From a virus: DNA of 64,000 nt. The stretch lies in IMG/VR virus record IMGVR_UViG_3300035101_000063; one strand, 5' to 3'. Under the pieces are notes generated by a model. That model made no database searches. It was given only the letters and a program-made list of their open reading frames with translations, and had not been told where the DNA came from. Below are positions 19 to 46,764 of the stretch, piece after piece (positions within the stretch are counted from its first letter, which is position 1; every line of letters begins with the position of its first letter). The translations under genes were made by a program, and so were the position numbers.

Positions 19-90
19 AGCCGATGAGAGGACTTGAACCTCCAACAAACTGATTACAGGTCAGTTACTCTACCATTAAGTTACATCGGC
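19..90 (-). tRNA. tRNA, anticodon UGU (Thr) most likely
   Basis: Reverse complement folds as a cloverleaf: acceptor GCCGATG/CATCGGC, T-arm GGAGG-TTCAAGT-CCTCT, anticodon stem ACTGA/TCAGT with loop CCTGTAA. Position 33 is C rather than U, so isotype is uncertain. Confidence 0.6.
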
Positions 91-103
91 TTAAACTAAA
101 TTT

Positions 104-178
104 TTGCGGAGAAGGGATTCGAACCCTTGACTGACCTGGCGTATGAAACCAGCGAGCTAAACCACTGCTCTACTCCGC
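104..178 (-). tRNA. tRNA with CAU anticodon (Met or lysidine-Ile)
   Basis: Reverse complement: acceptor TGCGGAG/CTCCGCA, anticodon stem CTGGT/GCCAG with loop TTCATAC (U33, CAU), T-arm AAGGG-TTCGAAT-CCCTT. Confidence 0.7.
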
Positions 179-180
179 AT

Positions 181-462: not shown

Positions 463-519
463 ATCTAACTCTCCTTTTTGTTTCTCCTTTCCTAAGCATC
501 TTGCTCAGTATCTATCCTC

Positions 520-549
520 TATTCTAACCCTACAAAACCGTTTGTCAAC
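520..549 (-). promoter_or_regulatory. sigma70-like promoter (minus strand): GTTGACAAAC -35, TAGAAT -10
   Basis: Plus-strand tttgtcaac at 541-549 reads GTTGACAAA on minus; TAGAAT lies 16 bp downstream on minus (plus 521-526). Confidence 0.55.
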
Positions 550-879: not shown

Positions 880-891
880 GTTTTTTTACTT

Positions 892-907
892 GCGAACTCG
901 AGTTCGC
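892..907. repeat. palindrome GCGAACTCGAGTTCGC (copy 1 of 10)
   Basis: Perfect 16-bp palindrome with a central XhoI-like CTCGAG; sits 13 bp upstream (minus sense) of the -35 at 872-877. Confidence 0.9.
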
Positions 908-917
908 TAATTTATTC

Positions 918-945
918 GTTTGTTTGTTTGTTTGTTTGTTTGTTT
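918..945. repeat. (GTTT)7 microsatellite abutting the distal CRISPR repeat
   Basis: Seven tandem gttt units; the last unit is the first four bases of the CRISPR repeat at 942. Confidence 0.85.
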
Positions 946-1413
946 CAATCCACGCCCCCTTTAAGGGGACGACACAGGCTCGCCAGACCACCGTCCCAAA
1001 TTCCCCAGGTCCGTTTCAATCCACGCCCCCTTTAAGGGGGCGACACAGCCCCGTGTACACATCCGGCGACGCGGAGTTGGATATGGTTTCAATCCACGCC
1101 CCCATGAAGGGGGCGAAACAGGCTCTTGCTTTTCCTCCTTTTTTCCCACCTCGTTTGCGTTTCAATCCACGCCCCCATGAAGGGGGCGAAACAGCCGGAT
1201 AATGGAATCCTTCTGTCCATATGCCCGAATCCGTTTCAATCCACGCCACCATGAAGGGGGCGAAACAGGGCTGTTGGAGGCCCGACAAGTAAAAAACAAA
1301 CTATGTTTCAATCCACGCCCCCATGAAGGGGGCGAAACAGTTCTCTTTTTTTGCCTGGTTTATCATAATTTTCTCCTGTTTCAATCCACGCCCCCATGAA
1401 GGGGGCGAAACAG
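942..1413 (-). CRISPR. CRISPR array 1: 7 repeats x 36 bp, 6 spacers (35-38 bp), type I-C-like repeat
   Basis: Repeats at 942, 1013, 1086, 1159, 1233, 1305, 1378 read GTTTCAATCCACGCCCCCATGAAGGGGGCGAAACAG. The reverse complement ...GCCCCCTTCATGGGGGCGTGGATTGAAAC matches the canonical I-C repeat end GTGGATTGAAA(C/T), so transcription is on the minus strand. The two leftmost repeats are variants (CCCCCTTTAAGGGG-CGACACAG). Confidence 0.93.
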
Positions 1414-1622
1414 AGACCATATAAAATAATATGTAATTACAATAACTTCCATCATTATTTTCGAGCGCCTATCATTTTTATATCTTATTATATATATCAC
1501 TGTTTTAATCAATACTCATTCATAAAACAACACATTACGTAACATTATGATATCATATAATAAAAACTAATTATATATTTTTCGAGCGGTCACAACTTTT
1601 TTACCACCATATAACCGCTCGA
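1414..1622 (-). promoter_or_regulatory. AT-rich leader-like region between the two arrays
   Basis: ~200 bp, very AT-rich, next to the most conserved repeat of array 1. Contains duplicated ttttcgagcg motifs (1461-1470, 1580-1589) and an inverted repeat cgagcggt...accgctcg (1583-1621). Confidence 0.45.
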
Positions 1623-1876
1623 TTTTCAATCCACACCCCCTTAAAGGGAACGACACAGAGCTCGGCGAATGCACGACCAAGACTGCTTAATGATGTTTCA
1701 ATCCACGCCCCCTTAAAGGGTGCGACACAGACGACTAAAAATATCAAGCATTCCTTTCCCATCATTCGTTTCAATCCACACCCCCTTAAAGAGGGCGACA
1801 CAGACTTTCTTATTTTTACTTCCCCCCTCTATTTCTTCACGTTTCAATCCACGCCCCCTTAAAGGGGGCGACATAA
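1623..1876 (-). CRISPR. CRISPR array 2: 4 repeats, 3 spacers, repeat variant CCCCCTTAAAGGGGG-CGACACAG
   Basis: Repeats at 1623 (degenerate), 1695, 1768, 1841 (3' end degenerate, ...gacat). Spacers 1659-1694, 1731-1767, 1804-1840. Same orientation as array 1; lies immediately 3' of the cas7 stop. Confidence 0.9.
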
Positions 1877-1913
1877 TATATTAAATTGTCAAAGAACACT
1901 ATCTCACTATCTA

Positions 1914-2798
1914 TTACAGCCCATCAATCTTTTCAGTCATCTCCACATTACTTGGCAAATCATCTCTATTTGCCACTATATCATAATCATTAAATGAACG
2001 TATTGGTTCATTAGGACTAACAATCCTATTTATTTTTATCAAATCAAACAATTTATGAGAAGGTGCATTACCTAACTTACTATTATGTTTAAAAACATAT
2101 AATTTCCTAGCAACCATCTTTCCTCTACCTGCAGAATGGTCATGCTCAAACATATTAATCATTGCTTCCCATAACAACTCAAGATCTTCTTCTGAAAAAC
2201 CAGTTTTCTCAGCAAAATAAGCAGATATATATCCTTCACATCTATACAACCCATAAGGTACAATGAATTTTTTACCCATCGTACGTTCTTTTTCTAGGTC
2301 CTCTTCCTTAGTAACAGCCATTCTAGTAATAGTTAACTCACCAGGAAGAACAGGATCAATACTTTTTGAAAAATTCATCTGAACTGGACCACGTACTTGT
2401 CCTGCATTAACAGCATTAGTCATTACAGCACCAAAAGTCCTAATATCAAAAAAATTATTACACATCCAGTTAGTTATCATAACTGATTCTTTTTCATCTT
2501 TTGGAAGCTTATTTGTTTCTGGCTTCAAATCATACTCTTTATAAGCCAATTCATGCTGTCTATTTAAAACAGCCTTCTCTTTAACATAAATCTTAAATCC
2601 TACTTCTTCTTCTTTTGTAACTTCGATATAATTTCTTATTTTTCTCTTTATACAAACATCAGAAACTAATCCATGAGACGTTTCCGAATCAAGCCTTGGC
2701 ATACCTCCAGCATCTGGATCTCCATTTGGATTTCCATTTTCAACGTCAAACAAAAAAACAAACTCATAACGATTTTTTATAACAGCCATTTTCATCAT
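1914..2798 (-). CDS. cas7c: Cas7c (Csd2) backbone subunit of type I-C Cascade
   Basis: 294 aa; N-terminal NRYEFVFLFDVENGNPNGDPDAGGMPRLD...GLVSDVCIKRKIRNY is the Csd2/DevR-family hallmark. Confidence 0.9.
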   Translation of the reverse strand: MMKMAVIKNRYEFVFLFDVENGNPNGDPDAGGMPRLDSETSHGLVSDVCIKRKIRNYIEVTKEEEVGFKIYVKEKAVLNRQHELAYKEYDLKPETNKLPKDEKESVMITNWMCNNFFDIRTFGAVMTNAVNAGQVRGPVQMNFSKSIDPVLPGELTITRMAVTKEEDLEKERTMGKKFIVPYGLYRCEGYISAYFAEKTGFSEEDLELLWEAMINMFEHDHSAGRGKMVARKLYVFKHNSKLGNAPSHKLFDLIKINRIVSPNEPIRSFNDYDIVANRDDLPSNVEMTEKIDGL

Positions 2799-4582
2799 CC
2801 TTTCATCTCACCAACAACTTCGTTGTCAATTCTATCTTCTTCGTTTTCATTATCAACTTTTTTTACAAAAAAATCATTCCATTGATGATAATATCCTATA
2901 ACAAATAAACCTTGATCTTCCAAACTCAAATAAGTTGGAAACTTATCAATATCATTATCATAAATAATAGAACCTAATTCTTTAGAATAATAAACCCAAA
3001 GTCCATATTTTTTATTCTTCAACTTCCTCTGATGATGAGTACTCAAGTGAAGTATTTTAGGAAATGCAACAGATGGCTTAACAGATGCAGATGTAAAATA
3101 ATTATCTTTTATTGTTGTTTTTATTTTTCTTTCTTCACTCTTTTCCTGTATTTTTTCCAATACAGCAAATAATCTTCCTAAATTATACGGCAAATCTTTT
3201 CTTTCTCTGTCTAAAGACACACTAACCTCCTTATTGAAATTTCTATTTAAAATTGCTTTTATTAAAGCACAATTATAACGATTTATCCTTTCATGTTCCT
3301 GCCTTTTATTATCTTTATTCTTCTTAGGAATAACCTTTAATCTATCTATCAATAAACTCATCAATGAAACAGGATATGGTATCCCATTTAAAATAGACAT
3401 CATAAATGGACCAACTATATTTGACGTTATATTTTTTTCGTCATACTGAAAAACTATTTCTGAAAAAAGTTTTTTAATACTTGGCATAAAATATTGTTCA
3501 TTTCTCCCTACAATATCTAAAAAATCAAAATGTTGAATTAATTTATTCGAGATACCTTCTATAGTATCTATATGCCAAAATTTAACAGACAAACGAGATA
3601 AATTTGGAACCAATCCTAAAATAAAAAATCTTTCATTACCATTAATATAATCTGGCATTCTCCTTTTTTTAACTGTATCCAAAAATTCTTCAGCTTCATC
3701 AACAAAATCAAAATCTTTTGATGGATTTAATAAAGTACCAAAAATATCATCCATCTTCGATTTTTTCTCAGACCAAAATACTATGGTCATATCGCCCAAT
3801 TCAATTTTATGTTTAGACTCTGAAATATAATTAAACGCAGTACTATATGCAAAAGCTTCATACTTTCCAATAGGAGCATTCAATCCTTGATCTTTGCTAT
3901 TATTTCCATAAGAACAAAATGAATCCATATTAAACGAAACAAAAGGAGCACTTTGCCCTTTCACTCTTATATTAGGATGAAGTCTAGCAATAGCAGTATT
4001 ATCTCCACTTATAATACAACGACCAAAACAATCACAATTACTTAAATATTTATCAGACCAATATCGTTGCAATTCATTTGATTCATGTAAATATTTCTCA
4101 TTACCCAACAATTTAACAACAACATTATTACATTTATCATCTAATACAATATCAAGATCTAAAAAAACATCAGGTTCCCATTTATCTAAGAAACGTATAA
4201 AAGCTTCTAAATCATCATTATTAATCATCTTAAAATGTTCACGATGATATTCTCTGAAAGCTTCAAATCTAGCCTTGCTTTTTTCAGTTATTTTCCAATC
4301 AGTATCATCACAAGCAATACCAAACATATATTCTAAATTCTCCCAACAAAAACCAGGACTTTTATTGATTCCATTAGTACGCTTAACCAAAGGAACCCTA
4401 ATAGATATTGGCCTTGGCTTTTTTTTGCTCTTGTCTTGTATATCTTCAAATCTAATAAAATTACCATAACTATCAATAACTAATGAATACTTTATTTTCT
4501 GGTTACCAAATCCTATTACAGGAATATCAGCACCAGATTCTTTTAAATATTCATAATAATTTACCAACTCTTCAAGAATCAT
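2795..4582 (-). CDS. cas8c: Cas8c (Csd1) large subunit of type I-C Cascade
   Basis: 595 aa; N-terminus MILEELVNYYEYL...RVPLVKRTNGINKSPGFCWENLEYMFGI is Cas8c-like; 4-bp overlaps with cas5 and cas7 indicate an operon. Confidence 0.85.
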   Translation of the reverse strand: MILEELVNYYEYLKESGADIPVIGFGNQKIKYSLVIDSYGNFIRFEDIQDKSKKKPRPISIRVPLVKRTNGINKSPGFCWENLEYMFGIACDDTDWKITEKSKARFEAFREYHREHFKMINNDDLEAFIRFLDKWEPDVFLDLDIVLDDKCNNVVVKLLGNEKYLHESNELQRYWSDKYLSNCDCFGRCIISGDNTAIARLHPNIRVKGQSAPFVSFNMDSFCSYGNNSKDQGLNAPIGKYEAFAYSTAFNYISESKHKIELGDMTIVFWSEKKSKMDDIFGTLLNPSKDFDFVDEAEEFLDTVKKRRMPDYINGNERFFILGLVPNLSRLSVKFWHIDTIEGISNKLIQHFDFLDIVGRNEQYFMPSIKKLFSEIVFQYDEKNITSNIVGPFMMSILNGIPYPVSLMSLLIDRLKVIPKKNKDNKRQEHERINRYNCALIKAILNRNFNKEVSVSLDRERKDLPYNLGRLFAVLEKIQEKSEERKIKTTIKDNYFTSASVKPSVAFPKILHLSTHHQRKLKNKKYGLWVYYSKELGSIIYDNDIDKFPTYLSLEDQGLFVIGYYHQWNDFFVKKVDNENEEDRIDNEVVGEMKG

Positions 4583-5250
4583 CTTTTAACCTCATCACTA
4601 TTCGGATGTGGAACACTTATGCATCCATTTTCTATTTTTGCACGAAAAAACATAGGCAAAATATTACATTTATCTTTTTTCTTCTTTATATCAAAACACA
4701 TATCATATAACATCCAACCAAGATCGCGTGTTTCATTTATAGCAACTGGCATCTTATTAGAAATGGGCTCAAAAAAAGCCGAGAATTCTCTACAACCCAA
4801 ATATGGCTGATTAAAACATTGACCATTTTCAATCCTTCGATTAAAAATACCAAAATGCTTTCCTTTGTTTTTTCCATCGTTTTCAACAGCCTCAAAATGA
4901 GCATCAATAACATAGCTTACATCTCGTAAAACCATAGAATTACGTTGTGTTCTATCAGATTCTATAAACAAAGATAATGGCCTTGAAATATTATTCATAG
5001 TAGATGTGATATTTTTTTTATAAATTGGAGAAGACACTTCATTTCTCCGAATATTACAAAAACGAATTGGATTCAAAACATAAATCTTATCAATTATCCA
5101 TCGAATAGATTTCTTCCAATAAATAGCCTCCAAAATTCCACGTGCAGCTGATGGTGTAATCACATCATAACTAACACGCTCAGCTTTCATTTCCGGCCTT
5201 GTAAAACACGCCAATTCACCCCAAACATGAACTTTTACTCCATAATCCAT
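4579..5250 (-). CDS. cas5c: Cas5c (Cas5d) subunit and pre-crRNA endoribonuclease of type I-C
   Basis: 223 aa; VHVWGELACFTRPEMKAERVSYDVITPSAARGILEAIYWKK matches the Cas5d N-terminal signature. Confidence 0.9.
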   Translation of the reverse strand: MDYGVKVHVWGELACFTRPEMKAERVSYDVITPSAARGILEAIYWKKSIRWIIDKIYVLNPIRFCNIRRNEVSSPIYKKNITSTMNNISRPLSLFIESDRTQRNSMVLRDVSYVIDAHFEAVENDGKNKGKHFGIFNRRIENGQCFNQPYLGCREFSAFFEPISNKMPVAINETRDLGWMLYDMCFDIKKKKDKCNILPMFFRAKIENGCISVPHPNSDEVKR

Positions 5251-5317
5251 AGTTTTCCCTTATATTTTTCAATATCTTATATCACATATTCTGCCAGCAC
5301 CATACTGACAATCTATC

Positions 5318-5350
5318 AAGACATTAATCAATTAATCATGTTTTGTCAAC
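5318..5350 (-). promoter_or_regulatory. promoter of the cas5-cas8-cas7 operon (GTTGACAAAA -35, TAATGT-like -10)
   Basis: tttgtcaac at 5342-5350 (minus GTTGACAAA); tandem 8-bp direct repeat attaatca x2 at 5323-5338 between -35 and -10 (possible operator); ~60-nt leader to the cas5 ATG at 5250. Confidence 0.55.
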
Positions 5351-5356
5351 ATTTTT

Positions 5357-5668
5357 CTACATTATCATTCCACACATATAAACTCTATCAATACGATGTT
5401 CACTAGCATCAAAAAAGGGTCCTTTCTTCCCTGAATATTTTACTTCATCTTTCAACCATTTACCGTTAGTCTCCTTATCTGGATCTTCACAATATATGTC
5501 TTCAGAAACAAAATCCAAAATCTCTGATACCGCTTCAGAATCCGAATCTGTATTTATATACTTACCATTTGCTTTATCTAGGATATCAAGATCTTCATCA
5601 GATACATTCTGAATAAAATATGCTTTCATATCTTCAGGAACCATCTCAAAAACTAAAAAAACATTCAT
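5357..5668 (-). CDS. hypothetical acidic protein upstream of the cas operon
   Basis: 103-aa ORF, RBS ggagataaaag, own promoter. Confidence 0.5.
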   Translation of the reverse strand: MNVFLVFEMVPEDMKAYFIQNVSDEDLDILDKANGKYINTDSDSEAVSEILDFVSEDIYCEDPDKETNGKWLKDEVKYSGKKGPFFDASEHRIDRVYMCGMIM

Positions 5669-7434: not shown

Positions 7435-8433
7435 TTACTCACAAGCACATAATCTAGGGTCTACTGACCTACGATTTGACATGATTGCCCCACCATTACA
7501 AACAACCACAAGTATCTGATGAAAAACCATATCACTAGAATCATTGTGATATGTACACCCAGCTGCTCCAACATTCCATGTACGGTCTCCTATTCCACAA
7601 GAATCAATCGAAGCATACCAATATCCAGTTTCACCTTCTAACCCCAATCCTTGGACTATAGATATACAATTCTTATGATTATCCTTAATCACATTTTCAG
7701 TATCATCAGAATATTCAAGGCCAAAACTATGACATACACTTATACAATCTGACCTCTCCTCTGGAAGATCTGACCTATAATACCAACATATCCCAGAATC
7801 ATCAGGGAATTCATATCCATTATCCAAACATACTGATTCTTCTGTTTCAGTATCCATTAAACCATAAAAATCCGTATCAAAATCAGTATCCGTATCAGTA
7901 TCTGAGTCTGCATCCGTGTCCGCATCTGAGTCTGAATCTGAGTCTGCGTCCGTGTCCGTGTCCGCATCTGAGTCTGTATCAGCATCACTATCCACATACC
8001 CATTCATATTACAACATTTCAAACCTCTAGGACATGTACCACTAACAGGAATTCCACCTAAAGAAGAACAACTACTTAGACATTCACTTTCACATTCAAT
8101 ATTGATATCTGTATCAGTATCTATATACATATCAGAATCGCTATCTGTATTAGAATCGCTATCTGTATCAGTATCTGTATCAGAATCTGCATCAGTATCT
8201 GCATCTGTATCAGTATCGGTGTCCGCATCAGCGTCTGTATCGGCATCTGTATCACTATCAGAATCGGCATCTGCATCAACATACTCATTTCCAGTATCAA
8301 AAACATTACTGTTACTGTAAATATAAGCAGAATCTATCCAAATATATCCAGCATCGACGTCCAAAAATGCATCTGGTTCAGCAGCACACCCCAAAGATAT
8401 AAAATATACAAAAACCCATAAAATCTTTTCCAT
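7435..8433 (-). CDS. secreted Cys-rich protein with two long Asp-rich (D-A/S/T) dipeptide repeat tracts
   Basis: 332 aa; N-terminal signal-like MEKILWVFVYFISLGCAA; DADADSDSDTDADTD... tracts flank a Cys-rich core (CESECLSSCSSLGG...CPRGLKCC). Confidence 0.6.
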   Translation of the reverse strand: MEKILWVFVYFISLGCAAEPDAFLDVDAGYIWIDSAYIYSNSNVFDTGNEYVDADADSDSDTDADTDADADTDTDTDADTDADSDTDTDTDSDSNTDSDSDMYIDTDTDINIECESECLSSCSSLGGIPVSGTCPRGLKCCNMNGYVDSDADTDSDADTDTDADSDSDSDADTDADSDTDTDTDFDTDFYGLMDTETEESVCLDNGYEFPDDSGICWYYRSDLPEERSDCISVCHSFGLEYSDDTENVIKDNHKNCISIVQGLGLEGETGYWYASIDSCGIGDRTWNVGAAGCTYHNDSSDMVFHQILVVVCNGGAIMSNRRSVDPRLCACE

Positions 8434-8935: not shown

Positions 8936-9118
8936 TTACCCCGTTTCTACCCCCTTCAATTTATCCTCTTGCTCTTCCTCTTGCTCTTTAACATAATTAA
9001 TTCCATATACAATAGAATCATCTGTCTTATCAACAGCAATAATAGCAATATTATCAAACAATTTCTCTACCATACCTAACATATTTACAATTCTATTTCT
9101 ATCCTCTTTATCTAACAT
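8936..9118 (-). CDS. hypothetical small protein
   Basis: 60-aa ORF; start abuts the previous gene's stop. Confidence 0.35.
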   Translation of the reverse strand: MLDKEDRNRIVNMLGMVEKLFDNIAIIAVDKTDDSIVYGINYVKEQEEEQEDKLKGVETG

Positions 9119-9296
9119 TCAATACCCCCATAAAAAACCCCATAAGAAAAAAAGCATCCAAAACAGTCTTATCAGGATATCTCAACGCTGCTTCCCTGAC
9201 CACTTTAGGATCTAGTTTAATAGAAAAAGCAACTTTACATTTATCAATTTTCATTATCAAATCAACCTTTCTTTGGCATCTTGCCAACTATCTAGT

Positions 9297-9330
9297 CATA
9301 GATAATACACAAAAAAACTACATTGTCAAC
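9297..9330 (-). promoter_or_regulatory. promoter GTTGACAATG -35 / TATTAT -10
   Basis: attgtcaac at 9322-9330; tattat (minus) at 9302-9307, 16-bp spacer. Confidence 0.45.
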
Positions 9331-10053: not shown

Positions 10054-10566
10054 TTATATCTTGGTTCCTTCGAGGTTGGCCCCTTCGAAGCCAGCCCATT
10101 TGAACTTGACCTCTTTAAGGTTGGCACTTTCAAGATTGGCCCCTTTAAGGTTGGCACTTTCAAGATTGGCACTTTCAAGATTGGCATCTTTGAGATTGAC
10201 CCCTTCAAGGTAAGCCCATTTGAGGTTGGCATCTTTGAGATTGGCCCCTTCAAGATTGGCATCTTTAAGGTAGGCCCATTCTAGATTGGCATCTTCGAGG
10301 TCAACCCCTTTTAGGTCAACCCCTTCGAGGCCAACCCCTTTTAGGTTGACCCCTTTAAGGTTGGCACTTTCAAGATTGGCACTTTCAAGATTGGCACTTT
10401 CAAGATTGGCACTTTCAAGATTGGCCCCTTTGAGATTGGCCCCTTTGAGGTTAGCTTCTTCGAGGTCAACCCCTTCGAGGTCAGCCCCTTTTAGGTTGGC
10501 TCCTTCGAAGTTGACCCCTTTGAGGATGGCTCCCCGCAAATTTCTTCCACTTAAATCAATTTTCAT
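10054..10566 (-). CDS. pentapeptide-repeat protein, paralog 1
   Basis: 170 aa; MKIDLSGRNLRGA... then continuous A(N/D)L(K/E)G pentapeptide repeats. Confidence 0.8.
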   Translation of the reverse strand: MKIDLSGRNLRGAILKGVNFEGANLKGADLEGVDLEEANLKGANLKGANLESANLESANLESANLESANLKGVNLKGVGLEGVDLKGVDLEDANLEWAYLKDANLEGANLKDANLKWAYLEGVNLKDANLESANLESANLKGANLESANLKEVKFKWAGFEGANLEGTKI

Positions 10567-11194
10567 TTTTTATCCCTTCGAGGTTGGCCCCTTCTAGATC
10601 GACCTCTTCTAGATCGACATCTTTAAGATTGGCTCCTTTAAGATTGGCTCCTTTGAGGTAGGCCCCTTTAATTTTGGCCCCTTCGAGGTTGGCTCCTTCT
10701 AGATTGGCTCCTTCTAGATTGACTCCTTCAAGGTTGGCACATTTAAGGATGGCCCCTTCTAGATTGGCCCTTTTTAGGTCTGCCATTTCTAAATTGGCCC
10801 TTTTGAGGTCTGCCATTTCAAGGTCTGCCCCTTCAAGGTTGGCCCCTGTAAAGTCTGACCCTTTAAAATTGGCATATCTTAGGTTGGCATCTTCGATGTT
10901 GGCCATTTTGAGGTTGACCCTTTCGAGATTGGCACCTCTTAGGTCTGCCCCTTTGAGGTCAGTACCTTCAAGGTTAGCACCTTCAAGATTGGCCCCTGTA
11001 AAGTCTGCCTTTTCAAGGTCTGCCCCTTCAAGATTGGCACATCTTAGGTATGTCCATTCGAGTTTGGCCCCTTTTAGGTTGGCTCCTTCGAGGTTAGCTT
11101 CTTCAAGGTTGGTCCTTTCTAGCTTAGCACCTCGCAAATCAATTCCTTCGAAGTTGGCTCCCCGCAAATTTCTTCCACTTAAATCAATTTTCAT
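10556..11194 (-). CDS. pentapeptide-repeat protein, paralog 2
   Basis: 212 aa; same N-terminus MKIDLSGRNLRGA; C-terminus ...EGIKNEN; 11-nt overlap with paralog 1. Confidence 0.8.
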   Translation of the reverse strand: MKIDLSGRNLRGANFEGIDLRGAKLERTNLEEANLEGANLKGAKLEWTYLRCANLEGADLEKADFTGANLEGANLEGTDLKGADLRGANLERVNLKMANIEDANLRYANFKGSDFTGANLEGADLEMADLKRANLEMADLKRANLEGAILKCANLEGVNLEGANLEGANLEGAKIKGAYLKGANLKGANLKDVDLEEVDLEGANLEGIKNEN

Positions 11195-11747
11195 TTTTTA
11201 TCCCTTCGAGGTTGGACCCTTTGAGATAGGCCCCTTCTAAATTTATCCCTCTCAAATCTGTCTTTTCCAGCTTGGCCCCTTCTAGGTAAGCCCCTTTAAA
11301 GTTGACTCCTTCCAAGTAAGCCCTTTTAAAATTGGCCCCTTTGAGGTTGGCTCCTTTGAAATTGGCCAAGTAGAGGTTGGCACATTCAAAATTGGCCCCT
11401 TCAAGGTTAGCATCTTTAAGGTCTGCCCCTTCAAAGTTGACCAATTTTAGGTTGGCTTCTTTGAGTTTGGCACCTTCTAGGTTGGCCCATTTAAGGATGG
11501 CCCCCTCAAGATTGGCCCCTTTTAGGTTGGCTTCTTTGAACTTAACCCCTTCGAGGTCAGCCCCTTCGAGGAAAGCCCCTTTTAGATTGGCCCCTTCAAG
11601 GTTGGCTTTTTTTAGATTGGCTCCTTTTAGGTAGGCATCTTTGAGGTTGGCCCCTTCAAGGTCAGCCCCTTTTAGGTAGGCACCTTCGAGGTCAGCCCCT
11701 TCCAAAATGGCTCCTCGCAAATTTCTTCCACTTAAATCAATTTTCAT
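11184..11747 (-). CDS. pentapeptide-repeat protein, paralog 3
   Basis: 187 aa; MKIDLSGRNLRGA ... EGIKNEN. Confidence 0.8.
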   Translation of the reverse strand: MKIDLSGRNLRGAILEGADLEGAYLKGADLEGANLKDAYLKGANLKKANLEGANLKGAFLEGADLEGVKFKEANLKGANLEGAILKWANLEGAKLKEANLKLVNFEGADLKDANLEGANFECANLYLANFKGANLKGANFKRAYLEGVNFKGAYLEGAKLEKTDLRGINLEGAYLKGSNLEGIKNEN

Positions 11748-12275
11748 TTATCTCTTAGCTCCTTCTAAGTTAGCTCCTTCTAAGTTGGCTCCTTTGAAAT
11801 TGGCTCCTTCTAGATTGGCCCCTTCGAGGTTAGCCCATTTAAAATTGGCTCCTTCGAGATTGGACCCTTCAATATTGGCCCATTTTAGGTCTGCCCTTTC
11901 GAGGATGGCCCCTTCGAGATTAGCCCCTTTGAGGATGGCCCCTTCGAGGATGGCCTCTTTGAGGTTAGCCCCTTTGAGATTTACCTCTTTGAGGTTAGCC
12001 CCTTCGAGGTTGGCCCTTTCGAGATTGGCCCCTTCGAGGTTAGTTCCTTCGAGGTTTGCCCTTTCAAGGTTGGCTCCTTTTAGGTTTGCCCTTTCAAGGT
12101 CTGCACCTTTGAGGTTAGCACATCTTAAACCTGTCCATTCAAGGTTGGACCCTTCGAGGTTAGTTCCTTCGAAGTTAGCTTCTTCAAGGTTGGTCCTTTC
12201 GAGGTCTGCCCCTCGCAAATCAATCCCTTTCAAAATAGCTCCTCGCAAATTTCTTTCACTTAAATCGATTTTCAT
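11748..12275 (-). CDS. pentapeptide-repeat protein, paralog 4
   Basis: 175 aa; MKIDLSERNLRGA...; its TAA stop overlaps the next ATG (taaATG). Confidence 0.8.
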   Translation of the reverse strand: MKIDLSERNLRGAILKGIDLRGADLERTNLEEANFEGTNLEGSNLEWTGLRCANLKGADLERANLKGANLERANLEGTNLEGANLERANLEGANLKEVNLKGANLKEAILEGAILKGANLEGAILERADLKWANIEGSNLEGANFKWANLEGANLEGANFKGANLEGANLEGAKR

Positions 12276-12708
12276 TTTTTATCCCTTCGAAGTTGGCCTC
12301 TTTGAGATAGGCCCCTTCCAAATTGGCCCCTTCCAAATTTACCCCTCGCAAGTTGACCTTGCTCAAATCAGTTCCTCTCATGTCAACCCTTTCCAAATTG
12401 GCACTTAGTAAGTCAGTCCCTTCCAAATTGGCCCCTCGCAAGTTAACCTTACTCAAGTTGGCCTCTCGTAAATCGGCCCCTTCCAAATCGGCCCCTCGCA
12501 AGTTTGCGTTACTTAAATTAGCCTTGCTCAAGTTGACCCCTCGCAAATTGGTCCATTCTAAGTTGGCCCCTTCCAGATTGACATTATTCAGATTAGCCTA
12601 TTCTAAGTTGGCCCATCGCAAGTTAATCCCTTCCAAATTGGCCTTGCTCAGATTAGCCTTTCGTAAATTGGCTTCTCGCAAAATTTTACCACTTAAATCG
12701 GTTTTCAT
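12256..12708 (-). pseudogene. pentapeptide-repeat paralog 5/6 interrupted by an in-frame TAG
   Basis: ATG at 12706-12708 gives MKTDLSGKILREANLRKANLSKANLEGINLRWANLE, then TAG (plus 12598-12600). The frame continues ANLNNVNLEGANLEWTNLRGVNLSKANLS... to the family C-terminus ...EGIKNENRFK at 12256. Confidence 0.6.
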
Positions 12709-12721
12709 TTTTTTTCCTTAT

Positions 12722-14929
12722 TCAATTCCAAATTCCATCAAACTTACCCACAAGTTGAGTCTTTCGATATCTCACAAGAATTCTTTCCAGCACTCTATAA
12801 ATATCATCTTCAGCCGTTTCAATATCTATAGAATTCATCCAATGCCCAATACAAGCATCAGGCTTATTGAATCCCATTCCATCCTTCAGAAAAGCCCCAT
12901 CACAAACACTACACAGATGGCCTAGAGCGCCCCTCAGTAGGCTCTTCCTTTCCTCGGTTAGTTCAGGTTCTGGCACATGAGAAACCCGCTCAGATTCCCG
13001 CTCAGCCACTCTCCTGATTTTCTGAGAGTAATACTCTCGATTGGCTTCATACTCAGCTTTGCGAATCCTTTCCGAGAGCTCTTCATCACTCTCCTCTTTG
13101 AGATCTACAAAATCAGACTTTTTACTAGAAACTTTTTGGCCACCCTTGAAAACATAATCATTATCAAGAGCCATATAGGCAAGTTTGACTTTGTACTCTA
13201 TAATATTTTGAATGTGAATATCAAGAGGATGAGAAGAAACCAGCCTTTTGATAGTCACATTGTTACTCTTCTGACCTATCCTGCAAATTCTGTCCTCTGC
13301 CTGAATATTCCAAGAGGGTGTCCAGTCAAGATCAACAAAAATCGCATTAGAAGCCCTTGTCAAAGTAAGACCAACACCCCCAGCCTTGATTGTCAGACCA
13401 ACACCTTTCAATTCGCCACATTGAAACCTCCTTACGACATTCTGTCTATCCTCTGCAGACGTATCACCGGTTATTACGTCCCATCCATCACGACTAGCCA
13501 ACTCATCTATAGGGGATCTATGAGCAGAAAAAACAACGACTGGCGTATCAGTTTCCTCATGCTCTTCAATTAAATTCAACATAGCAGGAATTTTAGCTTT
13601 AGCCAACAAAGCCCTTACTCGAGAAAAAGCATTAAAATCAGGGATTGTATCAAGGTCCAACATTGAAAAATCATCTGCATCAAAATTGATTCCTTGAGCA
13701 TCGGCAATTTCTTGAGCAAGTTCTTTCAATTCCTTATTGAGAGACCTACTAGAACAATCAACCTCAATCCTCTGATAAGTCTTAGGAGGAAGGTCTTTGA
13801 GAACGTCTTTTTTGAGTCTACGAATCATAACTCTCTTCATTCTCTCAACAACTTCCTGAGTGGGAAGACCAAACTCATACCCACCGTACTTACTACATGA
13901 ACCATTGAAAAGATTAACAAACTTGTTAAATCCACCCAAAGGATACATTCCAAACGCACACAAAACACCCCACAAATCAAATGGTCGATTCATCAACGGA
14001 GTTCCAGTCAAAACCCAAACCTTGGCAACATTTTTTGATAATTGTGTAACCTTTTGTGTCCTTTTAGCTTTGTAATTTTTTGCAAGATGACCTTCATCAA
14101 AAATAACAATTGTCTCGTTCAAACCAGAACGTTTGTCTGATGGAATATCAGCAACCAGAATCGGGTCACCCTTCTTATTTATTTTCCCACTATCAATTGT
14201 GGGCATCAACCATTTGGGCAGAATATCATAATTGACAATAACTATCTCACCCTCGTTAGGGACAATATTATCGTCTTTTTTACCCTTGACTATCCTAATA
14301 GAATAATCTGGTCTCCAAAGTTGAATCTCATCTCTCCAGTTGTATTTAACAGCAGAAGGGCAAGTAACTAAAACTCTTGATTTCTCAGGAATGGCAACAA
14401 GAGCCTGAACGGTTTTCCCGAGTCCCATATCATCAGCCATCAACGCATGATTATGAAGAGCAAGAAATCTAACTCCATCACGCTGAAAATCATAAAGAGG
14501 ACTTCCGTCAACCCTGACACGTTCAGCTCGTTTTTCAGCTTCTTGAGAGGCTACGGTACCGATTGAAGCACGCTTCCTTAGACTATCAGGAACATCGAGT
14601 TTTAGTTGGTCAGCAATCTCGATGACTCTATCCAAGTCCTCAGTCTTGACACTCACTGTCCAGTGCTTTTCGTCTGGATTCCATCGAGCCCCAGGCATAG
14701 AACGCAACAGAGTAATAGCATTTTTGTCATACCCCATGATGACCTTGCCATCCTCGGTCAATTTACGGACATTATCTCTATTCTGGTCTACGCCAAGTTT
14801 TCGATGACAAGCTGTTGATTTGCAAACTGTATGCCAAGTACCATTTTCAACGAAAGCAAAACCGTCACCCACGCCAACTTGCTCTCCACAACACTCACAA
14901 CGTTTCGAAAATTTGTTTTTTATAACCAT
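12722..14929 (-). CDS. SNF2-family (DEAD/H-like) helicase with N-terminal zinc ribbon
   Basis: 735 aa; CECCGEQ...CKSTACH Zn ribbon; ALMADDMGLGKTVQALV (motif I), FDEGHLAKN (DEGH box), C-terminal helicase lobe; G+C visibly higher than flanking phage DNA. Confidence 0.85.
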   Translation of the reverse strand: MVIKNKFSKRCECCGEQVGVGDGFAFVENGTWHTVCKSTACHRKLGVDQNRDNVRKLTEDGKVIMGYDKNAITLLRSMPGARWNPDEKHWTVSVKTEDLDRVIEIADQLKLDVPDSLRKRASIGTVASQEAEKRAERVRVDGSPLYDFQRDGVRFLALHNHALMADDMGLGKTVQALVAIPEKSRVLVTCPSAVKYNWRDEIQLWRPDYSIRIVKGKKDDNIVPNEGEIVIVNYDILPKWLMPTIDSGKINKKGDPILVADIPSDKRSGLNETIVIFDEGHLAKNYKAKRTQKVTQLSKNVAKVWVLTGTPLMNRPFDLWGVLCAFGMYPLGGFNKFVNLFNGSCSKYGGYEFGLPTQEVVERMKRVMIRRLKKDVLKDLPPKTYQRIEVDCSSRSLNKELKELAQEIADAQGINFDADDFSMLDLDTIPDFNAFSRVRALLAKAKIPAMLNLIEEHEETDTPVVVFSAHRSPIDELASRDGWDVITGDTSAEDRQNVVRRFQCGELKGVGLTIKAGGVGLTLTRASNAIFVDLDWTPSWNIQAEDRICRIGQKSNNVTIKRLVSSHPLDIHIQNIIEYKVKLAYMALDNDYVFKGGQKVSSKKSDFVDLKEESDEELSERIRKAEYEANREYYSQKIRRVAERESERVSHVPEPELTEERKSLLRGALGHLCSVCDGAFLKDGMGFNKPDACIGHWMNSIDIETAEDDIYRVLERILVRYRKTQLVGKFDGIWN

Positions 14930-14964
14930 AATTGTCTCCTCCTCAACATCTTGTTGAGTATCTA

Positions 14965-14999
14965 CATTGATTTTAAGACATTAAAAATAGTTTGTCAAC
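14965..14999 (-). promoter_or_regulatory. promoter GTTGACAAAC -35 / TAAAAT -10, followed by 5'UTR hairpin CTCAACATCTTGTTGAG (14942-14958)
   Basis: tttgtcaac at 14991-14999; 17-bp spacer; taaaat (minus). The ~70-bp cassette is duplicated at 16646-16714. Confidence 0.55.
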
Positions 15000-15016
15000 T
15001 TTTTTTTAAGTTTTCT

Positions 15017-15721
15017 CTAAAGTTTTTCTTTTTTAGTAATAGGTCTAGATATTTTACTGATTTTGGGTGTAGGTGATCTAAAAGCAACAGTATTTGTACC
15101 TCCAATACTACGTGGCTTTTCACTCCTCATGAAAACCTTTCCATCTTTTATAATGGCAACAGATGTAATTCTTTTTCCATTATCAAGAATTTTTATTTCA
15201 TACCCTCTACCAAGTTTTTCTATCCTAAAATTTTTCTTAACAACAAGTTTGTTAAGAATATCAATATCTTCATTTTCTGTAGCCATTATAATTTGATTTT
15301 GTATATCAAGAGTTTTTGGCTTCAAAAAATATATTTGTGATACTTTTTTTTGTGCAAAAATACGCCTAATCTTTTTTTCGTATTTTAAACTGTCATAATC
15401 ATCCGGTAATTTTTCCCATGGCAAAATTTTTGCCAACTCCGATGAAGACAACATCCACTTAGTTCCACAAACCTTAATATTTACATCTTTATCAGATATC
15501 AACTTCAACCATTTATCCCCTCTGGTATGAATATCCCATCCTGGTCCACTTGCTATATTAGCAATAAATTCCATACCGATTAGATTCAACGCCTTTACAA
15601 ATATTTTTTCAAAATATTTTCCACCAAGACCAGAATCCTCGATATCTGCAATTTTTTCTTCTAATCGATCAAGTAATTCTCTCATAAGAGAGATTATAAA
15701 TAAAAAATAAAATATCTTCAA
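15017..15721 (-). CDS. hypothetical protein
   Basis: 234-aa ORF; no confident family assignment (weak D..D.K pattern only). Confidence 0.5.
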   Translation of the reverse strand: MKIFYFLFIISLMRELLDRLEEKIADIEDSGLGGKYFEKIFVKALNLIGMEFIANIASGPGWDIHTRGDKWLKLISDKDVNIKVCGTKWMLSSSELAKILPWEKLPDDYDSLKYEKKIRRIFAQKKVSQIYFLKPKTLDIQNQIIMATENEDIDILNKLVVKKNFRIEKLGRGYEIKILDNGKRITSVAIIKDGKVFMRSEKPRSIGGTNTVAFRSPTPKISKISRPITKKEKL

Positions 15722-15764
15722 ATACTTTTTATTTACCCAATCCCAATAAAATTAATCATCTGGT

Positions 15765-16235
15765 TCATTGATATAAAAACTCTATAATATCCTCAAAGGA
15801 TACATCGCCATCGGACCATTCTGAGCATATGGATAAATCTATGAATGATGATTTCTCGCCGACTATAAGCTCGACATACTCGTAGCCGTACACATCGCTA
15901 CTGACACCTCGATACCTAACCAACGTCGTATTACGAGATCGACTCTCATACGCCTCATGTGCTCGCCATACTCGTCCCAGCGCATCATTTTTCACTGCCA
16001 TAATATCAGGAGCCATAACTAAATATGGTTTATTCTGCCATCCGCCGTCGGATGGAGAAGGCATTTTCTCTTCTATTAGAGAGGATTTTTCTTCATGTCC
16101 TATCATGTGCCAGTTATCGTCTCGACTCTTATACACACGCAGATACGCACGCGCGTAATCTGAACCGAATAGTAGCAAACCCTTAATCCAATCCTCTTCT
16201 ACGCTATATGTTGGCATTGTTGCATAAATTTTCAT
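15765..16235 (-). CDS. hypothetical protein (higher-GC island)
   Basis: 156-aa ORF; composition visibly GC-richer than the phage average. Confidence 0.5.
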   Translation of the reverse strand: MKIYATMPTYSVEEDWIKGLLLFGSDYARAYLRVYKSRDDNWHMIGHEEKSSLIEEKMPSPSDGGWQNKPYLVMAPDIMAVKNDALGRVWRAHEAYESRSRNTTLVRYRGVSSDVYGYEYVELIVGEKSSFIDLSICSEWSDGDVSFEDIIEFLYQ

Positions 16236-16319
16236 AGTTTATCTCCTTTGTTATGGCCGAATCGGCCTACATTCCACCGACATTCCACCGACATTGCTAA
16301 CGGGTAGACGGGATCAATT

Positions 16320-16676
16320 CTATCCATTCAATCGCGCAGCATGGGCTTCCGCGTCTTTGGGGTTTTTGAATACCCCGTTACAATTTCGCGCCCAACTCAA
16401 ATCATCATCCAGATCGACAGCGGCTACAGCCCAATGTCGAGGCGCATCCATATAAACTAGAAATTCCGTTGGCTTGACATAGATAAAGATGAGACTGGGG
16501 TCTTCGCTGGCGATTTCCTCAGCATCTGCTACTGAGATGTCATAACGCGCGTCTTCTATGGGGTCTGCATATTTGCAGAGCACTGAATCTGAATTACTAC
16601 GCTTGAAATCAATTGCCTCATACCCTATCAGGTTTTTCATCTTTCTTCTCCTTTCGCTCAACATCTTGTTGAGCAT
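16320..16676 (-). CDS. hypothetical protein (higher-GC island)
   Basis: 118-aa ORF preceded by the duplicated promoter/hairpin cassette. Confidence 0.5.
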   Translation of the reverse strand: MLNKMLSERRRKMKNLIGYEAIDFKRSNSDSVLCKYADPIEDARYDISVADAEEIASEDPSLIFIYVKPTEFLVYMDAPRHWAVAAVDLDDDLSWARNCNGVFKNPKDAEAHAARLNG

Positions 16677-16714
16677 CTATACTGATTTTAAGACATCAAA
16701 AATGCTTTGTCAAC
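16646..16714 (-). promoter_or_regulatory. second copy of the promoter + 5'UTR hairpin cassette (GCTCAACATCTTGTTGAGC at 16656-16674)
   Basis: Near-identical to 14931-14999: tttgtcaac at 16706-16714, taaaat -10, hairpin, then RBS aaggagaag and the ATG at 16676. Confidence 0.55.
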
Positions 16715-17739
16715 TTTTTTTTTAGGTTTTTATCCATCATGGCATGACGATCCTGTGACGTCATCACTTTCCACTGATATTCGCTAATGGTAATTTCATG
16801 CGCTATATATTCCTCATCATTATCATTCTGCACATCATGCACATCAGAAATGCGGCTACTAGGAATTTCTTTTATGGCATAAATATTAGTGTTTATACCA
16901 TCAAAAGTACTACGCCAAACTAAACCATCGCCTTCAAATGCCCACCCATGACACATCTCCCCGCCATCTATCATGCGAGGGTCCGATGAAAGAGTATGCT
17001 CTATCAAACCTTCTTTTCCAACTACAACCCACTGGTCATCTAAAACCTGATAAATACCTAAATTTTCCATCCACGTTGTTTGTGGCCTAGCAAGGCTGCC
17101 CAACCATTGATGAGTAGGAATGGTATATTCTTCCAAATTAAGAAATCTACTAATTGAAGGTCTTGAAGCAGTAGATTCCATCGTATATAAAGTACACTCA
17201 TAAGATACATCCACTAATTCGTTATTTTCGTTAGTATCGAAGCGTCGAGCTTCAAGCAATGGTGGTCGCTCAGGCACAAGCCAAGTAAATGGAATCTGTT
17301 TTGCGGTCAAACAATCATTCGACATTGCGACATCGAGACTTTGGATGAGGGAAGAAATGTTGCGTTGCACAAAATTCACTGGTAAAAACCATACTTTGTC
17401 TTTACGGTCTGATATAACTACTGGATAATTTTTATCTATCCCCTTGTGACCCCGAATTGGGATCCACATATAAAGACCATCCCCAATTGATGCAACATTA
17501 ACGGGAGATTGCCTAGGAATGTCTACGCGATACCATCCCAACTTTAAGACATCATTGGCAGGAACCCAACCCGCCCCAGATAACCCAGATTTTGACCGAT
17601 AATATAGTTGCCCTGCTATACAAAAATCATGCACGGCATCCGAGTCAAATTCATACGTCAGAATTTTCAGCGGATCATCATCCACCAAAATAATGACATC
17701 TGTATCACCCTCACTCCATGATAACTCTACTTTTTTCAT
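16696..17739 (-). CDS. hypothetical protein
   Basis: 347-aa ORF, no recognisable motif. Confidence 0.55.
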   Translation of the reverse strand: MKKVELSWSEGDTDVIILVDDDPLKILTYEFDSDAVHDFCIAGQLYYRSKSGLSGAGWVPANDVLKLGWYRVDIPRQSPVNVASIGDGLYMWIPIRGHKGIDKNYPVVISDRKDKVWFLPVNFVQRNISSLIQSLDVAMSNDCLTAKQIPFTWLVPERPPLLEARRFDTNENNELVDVSYECTLYTMESTASRPSISRFLNLEEYTIPTHQWLGSLARPQTTWMENLGIYQVLDDQWVVVGKEGLIEHTLSSDPRMIDGGEMCHGWAFEGDGLVWRSTFDGINTNIYAIKEIPSSRISDVHDVQNDNDEEYIAHEITISEYQWKVMTSQDRHAMMDKNLKKKLTKHF

Positions 17740-18038
17740 TGATCTTCTCCTCTTTCTTCTTTAGTTGACATCTCGTCAAACATCTTAGTAAGTTTTCTTT
17801 GACAATAATTTGATTTTTTTCCGAAAAGAAAATAAATTCTCCTGTCTATATCCTCAGCTTCAGAAATGGCTAAATTCTTGCATTGCTCTGAGCAGAATAC
17901 TCCTTCTAAAATCCTTTCTCCACAAAACATGCATTCATTTTTTTTAATATTCATAGAGAAAATCCTCATAGAGAAAATCCCATACAACCTATAACACATC
18001 CTTGTGTGTCTCGTAGTACCATACACGGCACTACACAA
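17736..18038 (-). CDS. hypothetical Cys-containing protein
   Basis: 100 aa; CMFCGE...CSEQC. Confidence 0.4.
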   Translation of the reverse strand: MCSAVYGTTRHTRMCYRLYGIFSMRIFSMNIKKNECMFCGERILEGVFCSEQCKNLAISEAEDIDRRIYFLFGKKSNYCQRKLTKMFDEMSTKEERGEDQ

Positions 18039-46692: not shown

Positions 46693-46720
46693 TTGACAAA
46701 CTTTATCATAATGTTAATAT
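46693..46720 (+). promoter_or_regulatory. plus-strand promoter AGTTGACAAAC -35 / TAATAT -10
   Basis: ttgaca at 46693-46698, 16-bp spacer, taatat at 46715-46720; ~45 bp upstream of the ATG at 46765. Confidence 0.6.
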
Positions 46721-46764
46721 TCATATAGATAGTCGATAAGATTTCGACAGAAAGGAACAAACTA

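Follow-up and report, generated by a model that had tools for sequence, protein, structure and literature searches.

Why would a virus place the same unit of approximately 70 base pairs (bp), in which a promoter is fused to a small hairpin and a ribosome binding site, in front of two of its genes? This question is raised by IMG/VR virus record IMGVR_UViG_3300035101_000063, a stretch of 64,000 nucleotides (nt) referred to here as the window, in which an earlier sequence-only reading had noted two near-identical copies of such a cassette, one ahead of an SNF2-family helicase gene and the other ahead of a small open reading frame (ORF). The window was read on both strands, and the sense (coding) strand of the cassette at this locus is the minus strand. 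The two copies are the paralogous, most similar (youngest) pair of a larger cassette family, which has at least 13 independent members. The function favored here, with a probability of roughly one half, is that of a class-specific hairpin in the 5' untranslated region (UTR), which would both protect or insulate the transcript and be read by a trans-acting factor, and which is mounted on a promoter of the host polymerase.

The Duplicated Cassette

The segments 14942-15014 and 16657-16729 are the top direct repeat found by the repeat search in the 13-19 kb region, with 73 nt at 89% identity, which bears out the near-identity reported for the pair; the identity is 77% across the whole cassette and 89% across its core. 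The 17-nt hairpin core, CTCAACAAGATGTTGAG, is identical in the two copies, where 0.27 matches (with up to three mismatches) would be expected by chance. On the minus strand, both copies share the order A8-9 tract, G-TTGACA-AA, 17 nt, TAAAAT, 5-6 nt, AGAT(A/G), hairpin, Shine-Dalgarno sequence, and ATG. The -35 element of each copy, given as GTTGACAAA, lies 3' of the A-tract, 17 nt before the TAAAAT -10 element, and the two copies score alike (11/12) in the promoter scan. Most of the other family members have the same kind of promoter, preceded by an AT-rich tract.

Copy 1 reads A8-G-TTGACA-AACTATTTTTAATGTCT-TAAAAT-CAATGT-AGATA in its 5' part, and CTCAAC-AAGAT-GTTGAG-GAGGAG-ACAATT-ATG in its 3' part, where the ATG (14929) is the start of the helicase gene. 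Copy 2 reads A9-G-TTGACA-AAGCATTTTTGATGTCT-TAAAAT-CAGTAT-AGATG, followed by CTCAAC-AAGAT-GTTGAG-C-GAAAGGAG-AAGAAAG-ATG (16640). A 347-amino acid (aa) ORF upstream of copy 2 (16696-17739, minus strand) terminates within the promoter spacer of this copy.

Most of the original description of these parts can be retained. The promoter fits the sequence, with a consensus -35 element, a 17-nt spacer, a good -10 element, and an A-tract upstream, and the hairpin does sit between the predicted transcription start (+1) and the ribosome binding site. The proposed stem of 8 bp is predicted by the folding of copy 2, but that of copy 1 has 7 bp, and the proposed UCU loop is a reading of the plus strand, given that the loop of the transcript is AGA, or AAGAU when the A-U pair is not counted. 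The helicase was correctly placed behind copy 1, whereas the start of the second ORF, which had been put at 16676, is almost certainly the ATG at 16640, behind GAAAGGAG. The ATG at 16676 is not the start of the ORF because it lies inside the hairpin loop and has no Shine-Dalgarno sequence; the loop ATG is also out of frame for the SNF2 gene. The SNF2 product matches PHROG 62 (DNA helicase, 5e-89), while the 106-aa product and the 156- and 222-aa products encoded 3' of it have no Pfam or PHROG match, and are classed as orphan ORFs (ORFans).

The Cassette Family

The search for further copies, which had been suggested at the outset, places the pair in a family that is represented in the window by five full copies and one degenerate copy, with seven more copies in sibling strains and a related phage. 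Three independent scans, based on consensus promoters, on hairpins around AAGAT, and on TAGAT...ARAGG, agree on the same five sites, at -548, -9329, -14998, -16713, and +46693 (the sign indicates the strand). These sites have a common layout, formed by TTGACA, a good -10 element, (U)AGAU(A/G), a 6-nt arm, AAGAU, the complementary arm, and (G)AAAGG(AG), although the arms themselves differ by site (CUGAGC/GCUUAG, UUGGC/GCCAA, CUCAAC/GUUGAG, and GUCGA/UCGAC). A covariance model built from the five sites and two orthologues recovers all five at 42-48 bits. Apart from the island pair, the full cassettes are 41-66% identical to one another, and their guanine-cytosine (GC) content is 27-33%, with 31-47% in the genes of the 10-20 kb island that houses the pair.

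The genes behind the cassettes are ORFans or accessory genes and, except for SNF2, have no function assigned by Pfam or PHROG. The cassette at 481-548 precedes a 93-aa ORF (181-462), the product of which is a small zinc-ribbon protein, and genes for the transfer RNAs tRNA-Thr(UGU) and tRNA-Met(CAU) lie directly downstream of this ORF (18-179, minus strand); the two tRNAs are probably co-transcribed from the promoter of the cassette. The cassette at 9261-9329 precedes a 48-aa ORF (9108-9254). The only plus-strand member leads an operon at 46765-47332, which encodes a CxxC...CxxC zinc-ribbon protein of 69 aa (46765-46974) and a stand-alone receiver (CheY-like) protein of 116 aa, and is the sole clear plus-strand operon, situated amid structural genes. 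Its leader hairpin is kept, with a changed stem or loop, in four relatives (L014, L015, L017, and L029), and is conserved down to 59% identity of the tail sheath. The degenerate member is located in the 3' end of the upstream ORF, at the far edge of a 2.8-kb gene block, and is followed by a purine-rich Shine-Dalgarno sequence and the ATG at 17739, with no consensus promoter.

Four more members were found in the sibling strain L045, in DNA that extends approximately 10 kb past the start of the window, each of them directly 5' of one of four consecutive small genes, with the stems GCCAGC/GUUGGC, UCAAAC/GUUUGG, GUCGGC/GCCGAU, and CCUAAC/GUUAGG. A pattern scan of the GTDB genomes returned 44 loci, of which 40 are chance-like, while the other four (L147, L153, L155, and L171) all belong to a single metagenome-assembled genome (MAG), CAYUTF01, labeled "uncultured archaeon binchicken_co196_315". 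Three of these cassettes are orthologous to known members and one is new (GUUGAC/GUCAGC). They lie on three contigs of 53, 15, and 65 kb, two of which are 82-99% identical to the phage of the window; L171 has no blastn similarity to the window or to L045. As the promoters and Shine-Dalgarno sequences are bacterial in type, these phage contigs are probably mis-binned, and do not represent evidence of an archaeal host.

Scans of IMG/VR for the exact pattern TAGATA-N6-AAGAT-N6-GAAAGG, and for the specific hairpin, returned either nothing or chance matches in coding sequence. A 7-N pattern (AGAT to CAAGATG), which cannot match the members with 6-bp stems, returned 73 loci in IMG/VR and metagenome contigs, five of which pass the stem filter, as against approximately five by chance. 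One full look-alike recovered by this pattern (L069/L133) is in a contig of 62% GC, and was not relied on.

Table 1. Coordinates of the cassettes, their parts, and the associated features in the window.
Feature	Position	Strand	Details
Cassette copy 1	14930..15007	-	Covariance model 43.7 bits
Copy 1, A8 tract	15000-15007	-	
Copy 1, -35 TTGACA	14993-14998	-	
Copy 1, -10 TAAAAT	14970-14975	-	
Copy 1, predicted 5' end AGAUA	14959-14963	-	
Copy 1, hairpin CUCAAC-AAGAU-GUUGAG	14942-14958	-	In minimum-energy fold, Shine-Dalgarno unpaired
Copy 1, Shine-Dalgarno GAGGAG	14936-14941	-	
Cassette copy 2	16641..16723	-	Covariance model 47.8 bits; fold z-score -4.0
Copy 2, A9 tract	16715-16723	-	
Copy 2, -35	16708-16713	-	
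Copy 2, -10 TAAAAT	16685-16690	-	
Copy 2, AGAUG	16674-16678	-	
Copy 2, hairpin GCUCAAC-AAGAU-GUUGAGC	16656-16674	-	
Copy 2, Shine-Dalgarno GAAAGGAG	16648-16655	-	
SNF2-family helicase gene, behind copy 1	12722..14929	-	Pfam SNF2-rel_dom 1e-32, Helicase_C 6e-14
106-aa ORFan, behind copy 2	16320..16640	-	Start revised to ATG 16640
156-aa ORFan, 3' of the 106-aa ORF	15765-16235	-	
222-aa ORFan, 3' of the 106-aa ORF	15017-15685	-	
Four-gene block of 2.8 kb (347, 106, 156, 222 aa)	15000..17778	-	Absent from related phage L147
Member	481..548	-	TTGACA-16 nt-TAGAAT, UAGAUA, stem CUGAGC/GCUUAG, GAAAGGAG; 46.9 bits
Member	9261..9329	-	TTGACA-16 nt-TATTAT, UAGAUA, stem (G)UUGGC/GCCAA, GAAAGG; 42 bits
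Member	46693..46764	+	TTGACA-16 nt-TAATAT, UAGAUA, stem GUCGA/UCGAC, GAAAGGA; 46.4 bits
Degenerate member	17753..17791	-	UAAGAUG-UUGAC-GAGAU-GUCAA; 27.4 bits, E 0.002
CGAACTCGAGTTCG copies	893, 6109, 9834, 20738, 23823, 39285, 45408, 48664, 55287, 57400		

The Hairpin as an RNA Structure

The evidence that the inverted repeat acts at the level of the transcript comes from the manner in which its arms have changed. In an alignment of 12 sequences, 94.4% of the 72 cells are paired, and five of the six pairs have undergone two-sided changes (23 cells), with a covariation score that was reached by none of 500 shuffles; covariation was also examined on an earlier set of seven sequences. When the 3' arm is slid, as a control, pairing falls to 25-50%. 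Orthologues differ in the same compensatory way, with the replacement of U-A by C-G between the L045 member at 16475 and L155, and of G.U by C-G between the member at -548 and L153, while further changes run from G.U to A-U and from C-G to U.G. The covariation among the 12 members and these changes between orthologues support the earlier suggestion of a transcript-level element common to a co-regulated set of genes.

The sense strand presents several G.U pairs and no A.C pairs, and it is always the coding strand that carries the asymmetric loop, even for the only copy on the plus strand. Together, these observations favor a putative hairpin of the sense transcript over a cruciform in the DNA or a palindromic site for a protein. 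In eight folded leaders, the hairpin is part of every minimum-energy structure, and the Shine-Dalgarno sequence (GAGGAG or GAAAGGAG), which begins 0-2 nt past the stem, is unpaired in all of them. The ATG of the first gene follows the hairpin at a distance of 8-29 nt.

A number of known elements were considered and set aside. Neither hairpin of the pair is followed by a U-tract, and thus neither is an intrinsic terminator, nor is either of them in the list of the terminator-like scan. An integron attC site would be compatible with copy 2, which fits RYYYAAC/GTTRRRY, but the arms are only 5 nt apart, the motif is not matched by the other members, and there is no integrase. A hairpin promoter of the N4 type was discarded, given that the cassettes already have consensus sigma-70 promoters. 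At the gathering score, Rfam recognizes only the two tRNAs in the whole window, and it returns nothing in the interval 14850-17850 at E values of up to 1.

The Constant Apex and the Predicted Transcript Start

The stems vary freely, while the sequences around them are nearly constant. The loop is AAGAU in nine of the 12 aligned sequences, and the heptamer C-AAGAU-G is found in eight of them (L171, which is outside the alignment, provides one more copy of CAAGAUG), while the 5' flank AGAU(A/G) is present in 11 of the 12. In the more distant relatives, the orthologous leader has GAGAU (at 81% sheath identity) or AAAAU (at 59%), and its stem has been replaced entirely. The A of AGAU is the seventh nucleotide after the -10 element in four of the eight promoter-bearing copies, and the transcript probably begins at this A, some 5 nt before the stem. 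Outside the context of the hairpin, the CAAGATG heptamer is not enriched (14 found, with 10.4 expected), and thus gives no sign of a complementary antisense partner.

Gene-Block Insertions and Deletions at the Cassettes

The duplication of the pair is tied to an insertion or deletion (indel) of a 2.8-kb gene block, an aspect that is PeSL-like (see below) at the level of the DNA, and which goes beyond the sequence-only reading. This four-gene block, which is absent from the related phage L147, is bounded by copy 1 and the degenerate hairpin, and has copy 2 in its interior. In blastn, positions 1-894 of L147 correspond to 14121-14999 of the window, and 892-1060 to 17779-17945, that is, homology runs from SNF2 through the cassette to 14999, and resumes at 17779, with a single cassette before SNF2. 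Missing from L147 are all four ORFs of the block (347, 106, 156, and 222 aa), together with copy 2 and the degenerate hairpin. The L147 cassette differs from each window copy at six of 57 positions, and the window copies also differ from one another at six. The change may represent either a gain or a loss of the block.

Similar junctions are found at other members of the family. Two features of L045, the 108-aa gene and the hairpin that has no promoter, are missing from L155, where the junction falls in the hairpin/Shine-Dalgarno region; one other L155 junction was left out due to a 100-N run. A module of cas5-cas8-cas7 plus CRISPR (889-5358) is also an indel between sibling strains, which starts with AAAAATGTTGACAAAA and stops just before AAAAACAGTTGACAAAA, both of them promoter parts of related cassettes, and the module is flanked on both sides by an A-tract and GTTGACAAAA. 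The 10-20 kb island itself is present at 99.6% identity in the strains seen. Overall, the cassettes appear, from these comparisons, to mark sites of gain or loss of gene blocks between related phages.

Proposed Function and Alternative Explanations

Under the favored reading, the DNA of the cassette would supply a promoter for the host RNA polymerase (sigma-70/sigma-A type), with an A-tract that resembles an UP element, and transcription would start at or beside the conserved AGAU(A/G). Approximately 5 nt downstream, the RNA would fold into a hairpin of 6-8 bp, the stem of which is free to vary, while the C-AAGAU-G apex remains constant, and which would end 0-2 nt before a strong, unpaired Shine-Dalgarno sequence. 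The hairpin may thus have two roles, capping the 5' end and insulating the ribosome binding site, on the one hand, and offering a trans-acting factor an invariant loop and 5' flank to recognize, on the other. The reading of these signals by the factor would impose a common post-transcriptional fate, at the level of stability or translation (shut-off, for example), on the early accessory genes. As the cassette is repeated as DNA, it may also provide the homology for the insertion, deletion, and duplication of gene blocks, with the island pair representing one such event. Four elements of this scheme are inferred, namely where transcription starts, that expression is early, that the factor exists, and in which direction it acts.

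The first of the two roles could be sufficient in itself, and a passive 5' stabilizer or insulator, with no dedicated factor and a loop kept constant by common descent or a folding preference, is a tentative but tangible possibility. Such an element would block 5'-end-dependent decay (by RNase J1/Y or RNase E/RppH) while keeping the Shine-Dalgarno sequence free, as does the architecture of 5' stem-loop plus ribosome binding site in the Escherichia coli ompA leader, the Bacillus subtilis aprE leader, and the early RNA of phage SP82, with its polypurine stabilizer (references in PMC3997798). The cassettes share this architecture, with a short hairpin predicted some 5 nt from the 5' end, abutting a strong, unpaired polypurine Shine-Dalgarno sequence, and three other early leaders of the window (-8528, -5742, and -5349) carry unrelated 5'-proximal hairpins; given this, a protective or insulating role of the hairpin is likely, by analogy. 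However, the known stabilizers serve single genes and share no loop, whereas a whole class of genes is equipped here with an invariant loop and 5' flank. Passive stabilization does not account for stems that have turned over at five of six positions, and spacers that are only about 50% identical, alongside an almost invariant AAGAU and AGAUR, and the GAGAU and AAAAU of the distant relatives suggest a sequence-specific reading that co-evolves with the lineage. It is this contrast, between an invariant apex and flank and freely covarying stems, that points to the reading of the hairpin by a factor.

If a factor is involved, it might be of the antitermination type, as the sequence-only reading had proposed among other options, with AGAUR acting as a boxA-like element and the pentaloop hairpin as a boxB-like one, to load an N-like protein for the read-through of terminators. 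The nut site of lambda-type phages (lambda, P22, and phi21) consists of a boxB hairpin with a GNRA-like pentaloop and a boxA consensus a few nucleotides upstream, and works through an arginine-rich, N-like phage protein that overrides downstream terminators; no N-like protein was identified here, no search aimed at one having been made. The likeness lies in the order of the parts near the start of an early transcript, where a short, conserved linear element precedes a 5-6-bp stem that carries a conserved loop of 5 nt, and long read-through transcripts are plausible, as almost all the genes are on one strand. The AAGAU loop (GAGAU or AAAAU in the relatives) lacks the G...A frame of a GNRA-like loop, though, and the AGAUR element does not match the boxA consensus, while the hairpin is always fixed in relation to the Shine-Dalgarno sequence of the first gene, and occurs in many copies, one per small operon. 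Nor are terminator-like sites enriched in the 8-21 kb region (eight found, 8.1 expected), and two promoter-less copies lie within polycistronic stretches, all of which renders antitermination improbable.

Three further explanations were considered. The two AGAT(G/A) motifs (AGAT(G/A)...AAGATG), direct repeats approximately 12 bp apart, might be a DNA operator that binds a regulator to shut the early promoters, the stem being incidental. They overlap the predicted +1 to +20 region with a fixed spacing in every promoter-bearing copy, and the region just downstream of the -10 element is the usual position of a repressor. This hypothesis, which is also improbable, accounts neither for 6-nt flanks that stay complementary through two-sided changes, nor for the tolerance of G.U in the absence of A.C on the sense strand; a palindromic operator would conserve its half-sites, which vary here, and there are copies with no promoter. 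A processing site for an endoribonuclease, at which RNase III or a Cas5c/Cas6-like enzyme of the phage would trim the leaders, was suggested in part by the sequence-only reading (RNase III), and the phage does encode Cas5c, a hairpin-recognizing pre-crRNA nuclease, and has a second family of hairpins between cistrons. RNase III needs roughly 20 bp, or some two helical turns, of (imperfect) double-stranded RNA, and a stem of only 7-8 bp falls far short of this, while the hairpin is unlike the CRISPR repeat, GTCGCCCCCTTTAAGGGGGCGTGGATTGAAAC, and the cassettes are kept in sibling strains that have no cas module, so that processing of this kind is very improbable. The same grade can be given to the idea that the promoter alone matters, and that the inverted repeat is a functionless remnant carried along by segmental duplication. 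In favor of this idea, the island pair, at 89% identity, is recent, and a block indel accompanies it, but thirteen independent members maintain their pairing through compensatory change, and orthologues at only 59-81% tail-sheath identity keep the hairpin, which would not be expected in the absence of selection.

A more far-reaching version of the factor hypothesis, which is speculative and rather unlikely as a whole, is that the apex and AGAUR form the site of an undescribed phage regulator of the early gene class (a translational repressor or decay trigger, or an N-like protein), and that the cassette is also a portable expression adaptor. The same joint reading would have foreign ORFs of higher GC content captured by recombination behind promoter-leader units, in an integrase-free, integron-like arrangement that is distinct from the PeSLs.

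A number of points weigh against the favored reading, that is, a protective hairpin which is also read by a factor. The position of the +1, the early timing, and the effect on stability or translation are themselves inferred, and no candidate binding factor was identified. The members recovered by the covariance model favor the structure of the model in the pair counts, although pairing played no part in the discovery of the five founding sites. The degenerate member at 17753-17791 and the L045 member at 15563 have no recognizable promoter, and the L147 junction comes from a MAG contig, where misassembly is possible. A single-stranded 5' tail of 5 nt is at the edge of protection in the mRNAs of E. 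coli and B. subtilis. The other strong promoters of the window have different leader hairpins, or none, so that early expression may not require the apex.

Comparison with Known Phage Elements

The closest known system is the promoter-early stem-loop (PeSL), a cassette of T4-type phages (Arbiol et al. 2010, PMC2839356; Comeau et al. 2014, PMC4122927). The stem-loop of a PeSL, which is often polyG/polyC, precedes the promoter and terminates or attenuates incoming transcription, and a further trait of the PeSLs is the formation of encapsidated mini-circles through recombination between cassettes. The two systems have in common a repeated unit of approximately 70 bp, with a consensus sigma-70 promoter, an AT-rich tract 5' of the -35 element, and a stem-loop, which is repeated in hyperplastic regions, preferentially before ORFans, and at which indel or replacement junctions between related phages are found. 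They differ in the position of the hairpin, which here is 3' of the -10 element, within the 5' UTR, and which precedes GAGGAG or CGAAAGG, not a U-tract, and in the covarying stem and invariant AAGAU apex that abut the Shine-Dalgarno sequence, as well as in the phage lineage. As judged by its layout, the element is PeSL-like at the DNA level, and yet is not a PeSL, given that it lacks the defining terminator upstream of the promoter.

In the Cluster K mycobacteriophages, the Start-Associated Sequences (SAS) and Extended SAS (ESAS) occur in 11-19 copies in one orientation, directly 5' of the start codons of some non-structural genes, and approximately half of the SAS have an adjoining inverted repeat with a variable spacer; the repeats as a whole are suspected of acting in translation (Pope et al. 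2011, PMC3203893). The SAS, GGGATAGGAGCCC, is 13 bp long and includes the ribosome binding site, and the ESAS arms are 17-bp imperfect repeats of conserved sequence (PMC3203893). The similarity to the cassettes, as lineage-specific, start-associated repeats, is conceptual only, as the sequence is different, the stem of the cassettes covaries, and the SAS/ESAS are not fused to a consensus sigma-70 promoter. In phage T4, RegB cuts unpaired GGAG, and is inhibited by structure, while RegA binds AU-rich single-stranded sites (PMC3014915). These targets are also short RNA features common to the initiation regions of early mRNAs, which are shut off by a phage factor, although neither is a hairpin with a conserved loop.

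If the favored reading is correct, this phage lineage would mark its host-polymerase-dependent accessory genes with one small RNA handle, which would offer a simple, testable example, from an uncultivated phage, of how a whole class of genes can be controlled after transcription. It also appears that the 70-bp unit is a seam for the exchange of accessory genes, both in the SNF2/pentapeptide-repeat island and at the nearby, Cas3-less CRISPR module, which would carry the idea of the PeSL, a regulatory cassette that doubles as a recombination module, beyond the T4-type phages, and to a promoter-then-hairpin design. The motif may serve as a marker for early genes and hyperplastic regions in related metagenomic phages, and the cassette may be of use in synthetic biology as a compact promoter/5'-UTR part.

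The Phage and Its Island

The GC content of the window is 35%, its GC skew is strongly negative, and nearly all of its genes lie on the minus strand. Its products include a tail sheath, a tape-measure protein, and a baseplate wedge, and the phage is therefore a large myovirus-like one. The relatives in IMG/VR are contigs of 157-176 kb, and a sibling strain is represented by a 172,915-bp JGI contig. A megablast search of the 12-20 kb region against the GenBank phages returned no match, and the IMG/VR scan found no relatives of a 556-aa early protein.

The 10-20 kb island contains the SNF2 helicase gene, ORFans, and five tandem pentapeptide-repeat ORFs, which lie directly 3' of the helicase gene (10054-12546, minus strand). 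The number of pentapeptide copies varies, with strain L051 lacking 11749-12711 (two ORFs), and the L147 pentapeptide gene is at a different location.

The CRISPR Module and a Second Hairpin Family

The cas module encodes a type I-C Cascade on the minus strand, with Cas5c (4579-5250), Cas8c (2795-4582), and Cas7 (1914-2798) all above the NCBIfam cut-offs, while no cas3, cas1, cas2, or cas4 was found in the window. The CRISPR array (942-1872) has 11 repeats, and is divided by an AT-rich stretch of 213 nt (1410-1622), which separates the GTCGCC..TTTAA.. and TTCGCC..TTCAT.. repeat variants; the exact repeat was not found in the GTDB genomes. An (AAAC)6 microsatellite follows the last repeat (905-941). 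Spacer 1 (1800-1840) has a match of 35/37 nt inside a 962-aa Bro-N/P22_AR_N gene of the sibling strains L046-L049, and because of this match the phage CRISPR system seems to be aimed at a sibling phage variant. The L046-L049 strains have no cas module.

A 14-nt palindrome, CGAACTCGAGTTCG, occurs in ten exact copies in the window, where 0.02 would be expected. Seven of the ten lie between a stop codon and the Shine-Dalgarno sequence of the next gene, mostly among structural genes, at 11-21 nt from the ATG, and the copy at 893 is just 5' of the A-tract and -35 element of the -877 promoter, in a PeSL-like order. Its sequence is invariant, with no covariation, and it recurs in close relatives (L014, L015, L017, and the MAG contigs), whereas the more distant ones lack it. 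By these features, CGAACTCGAGTTCG is classed as a second, distinct family of putative hairpins that adjoin Shine-Dalgarno sequences.

A different hairpin, followed by UAGAUA, forms the leader of the -8528 promoter, behind which lies a 332-aa ORF (7435-8433, minus strand), the product of which has a hydrophobic N-terminus and long dipeptide-like repeats of Asp, Thr, and Ser (DADTDADTDSDS...).

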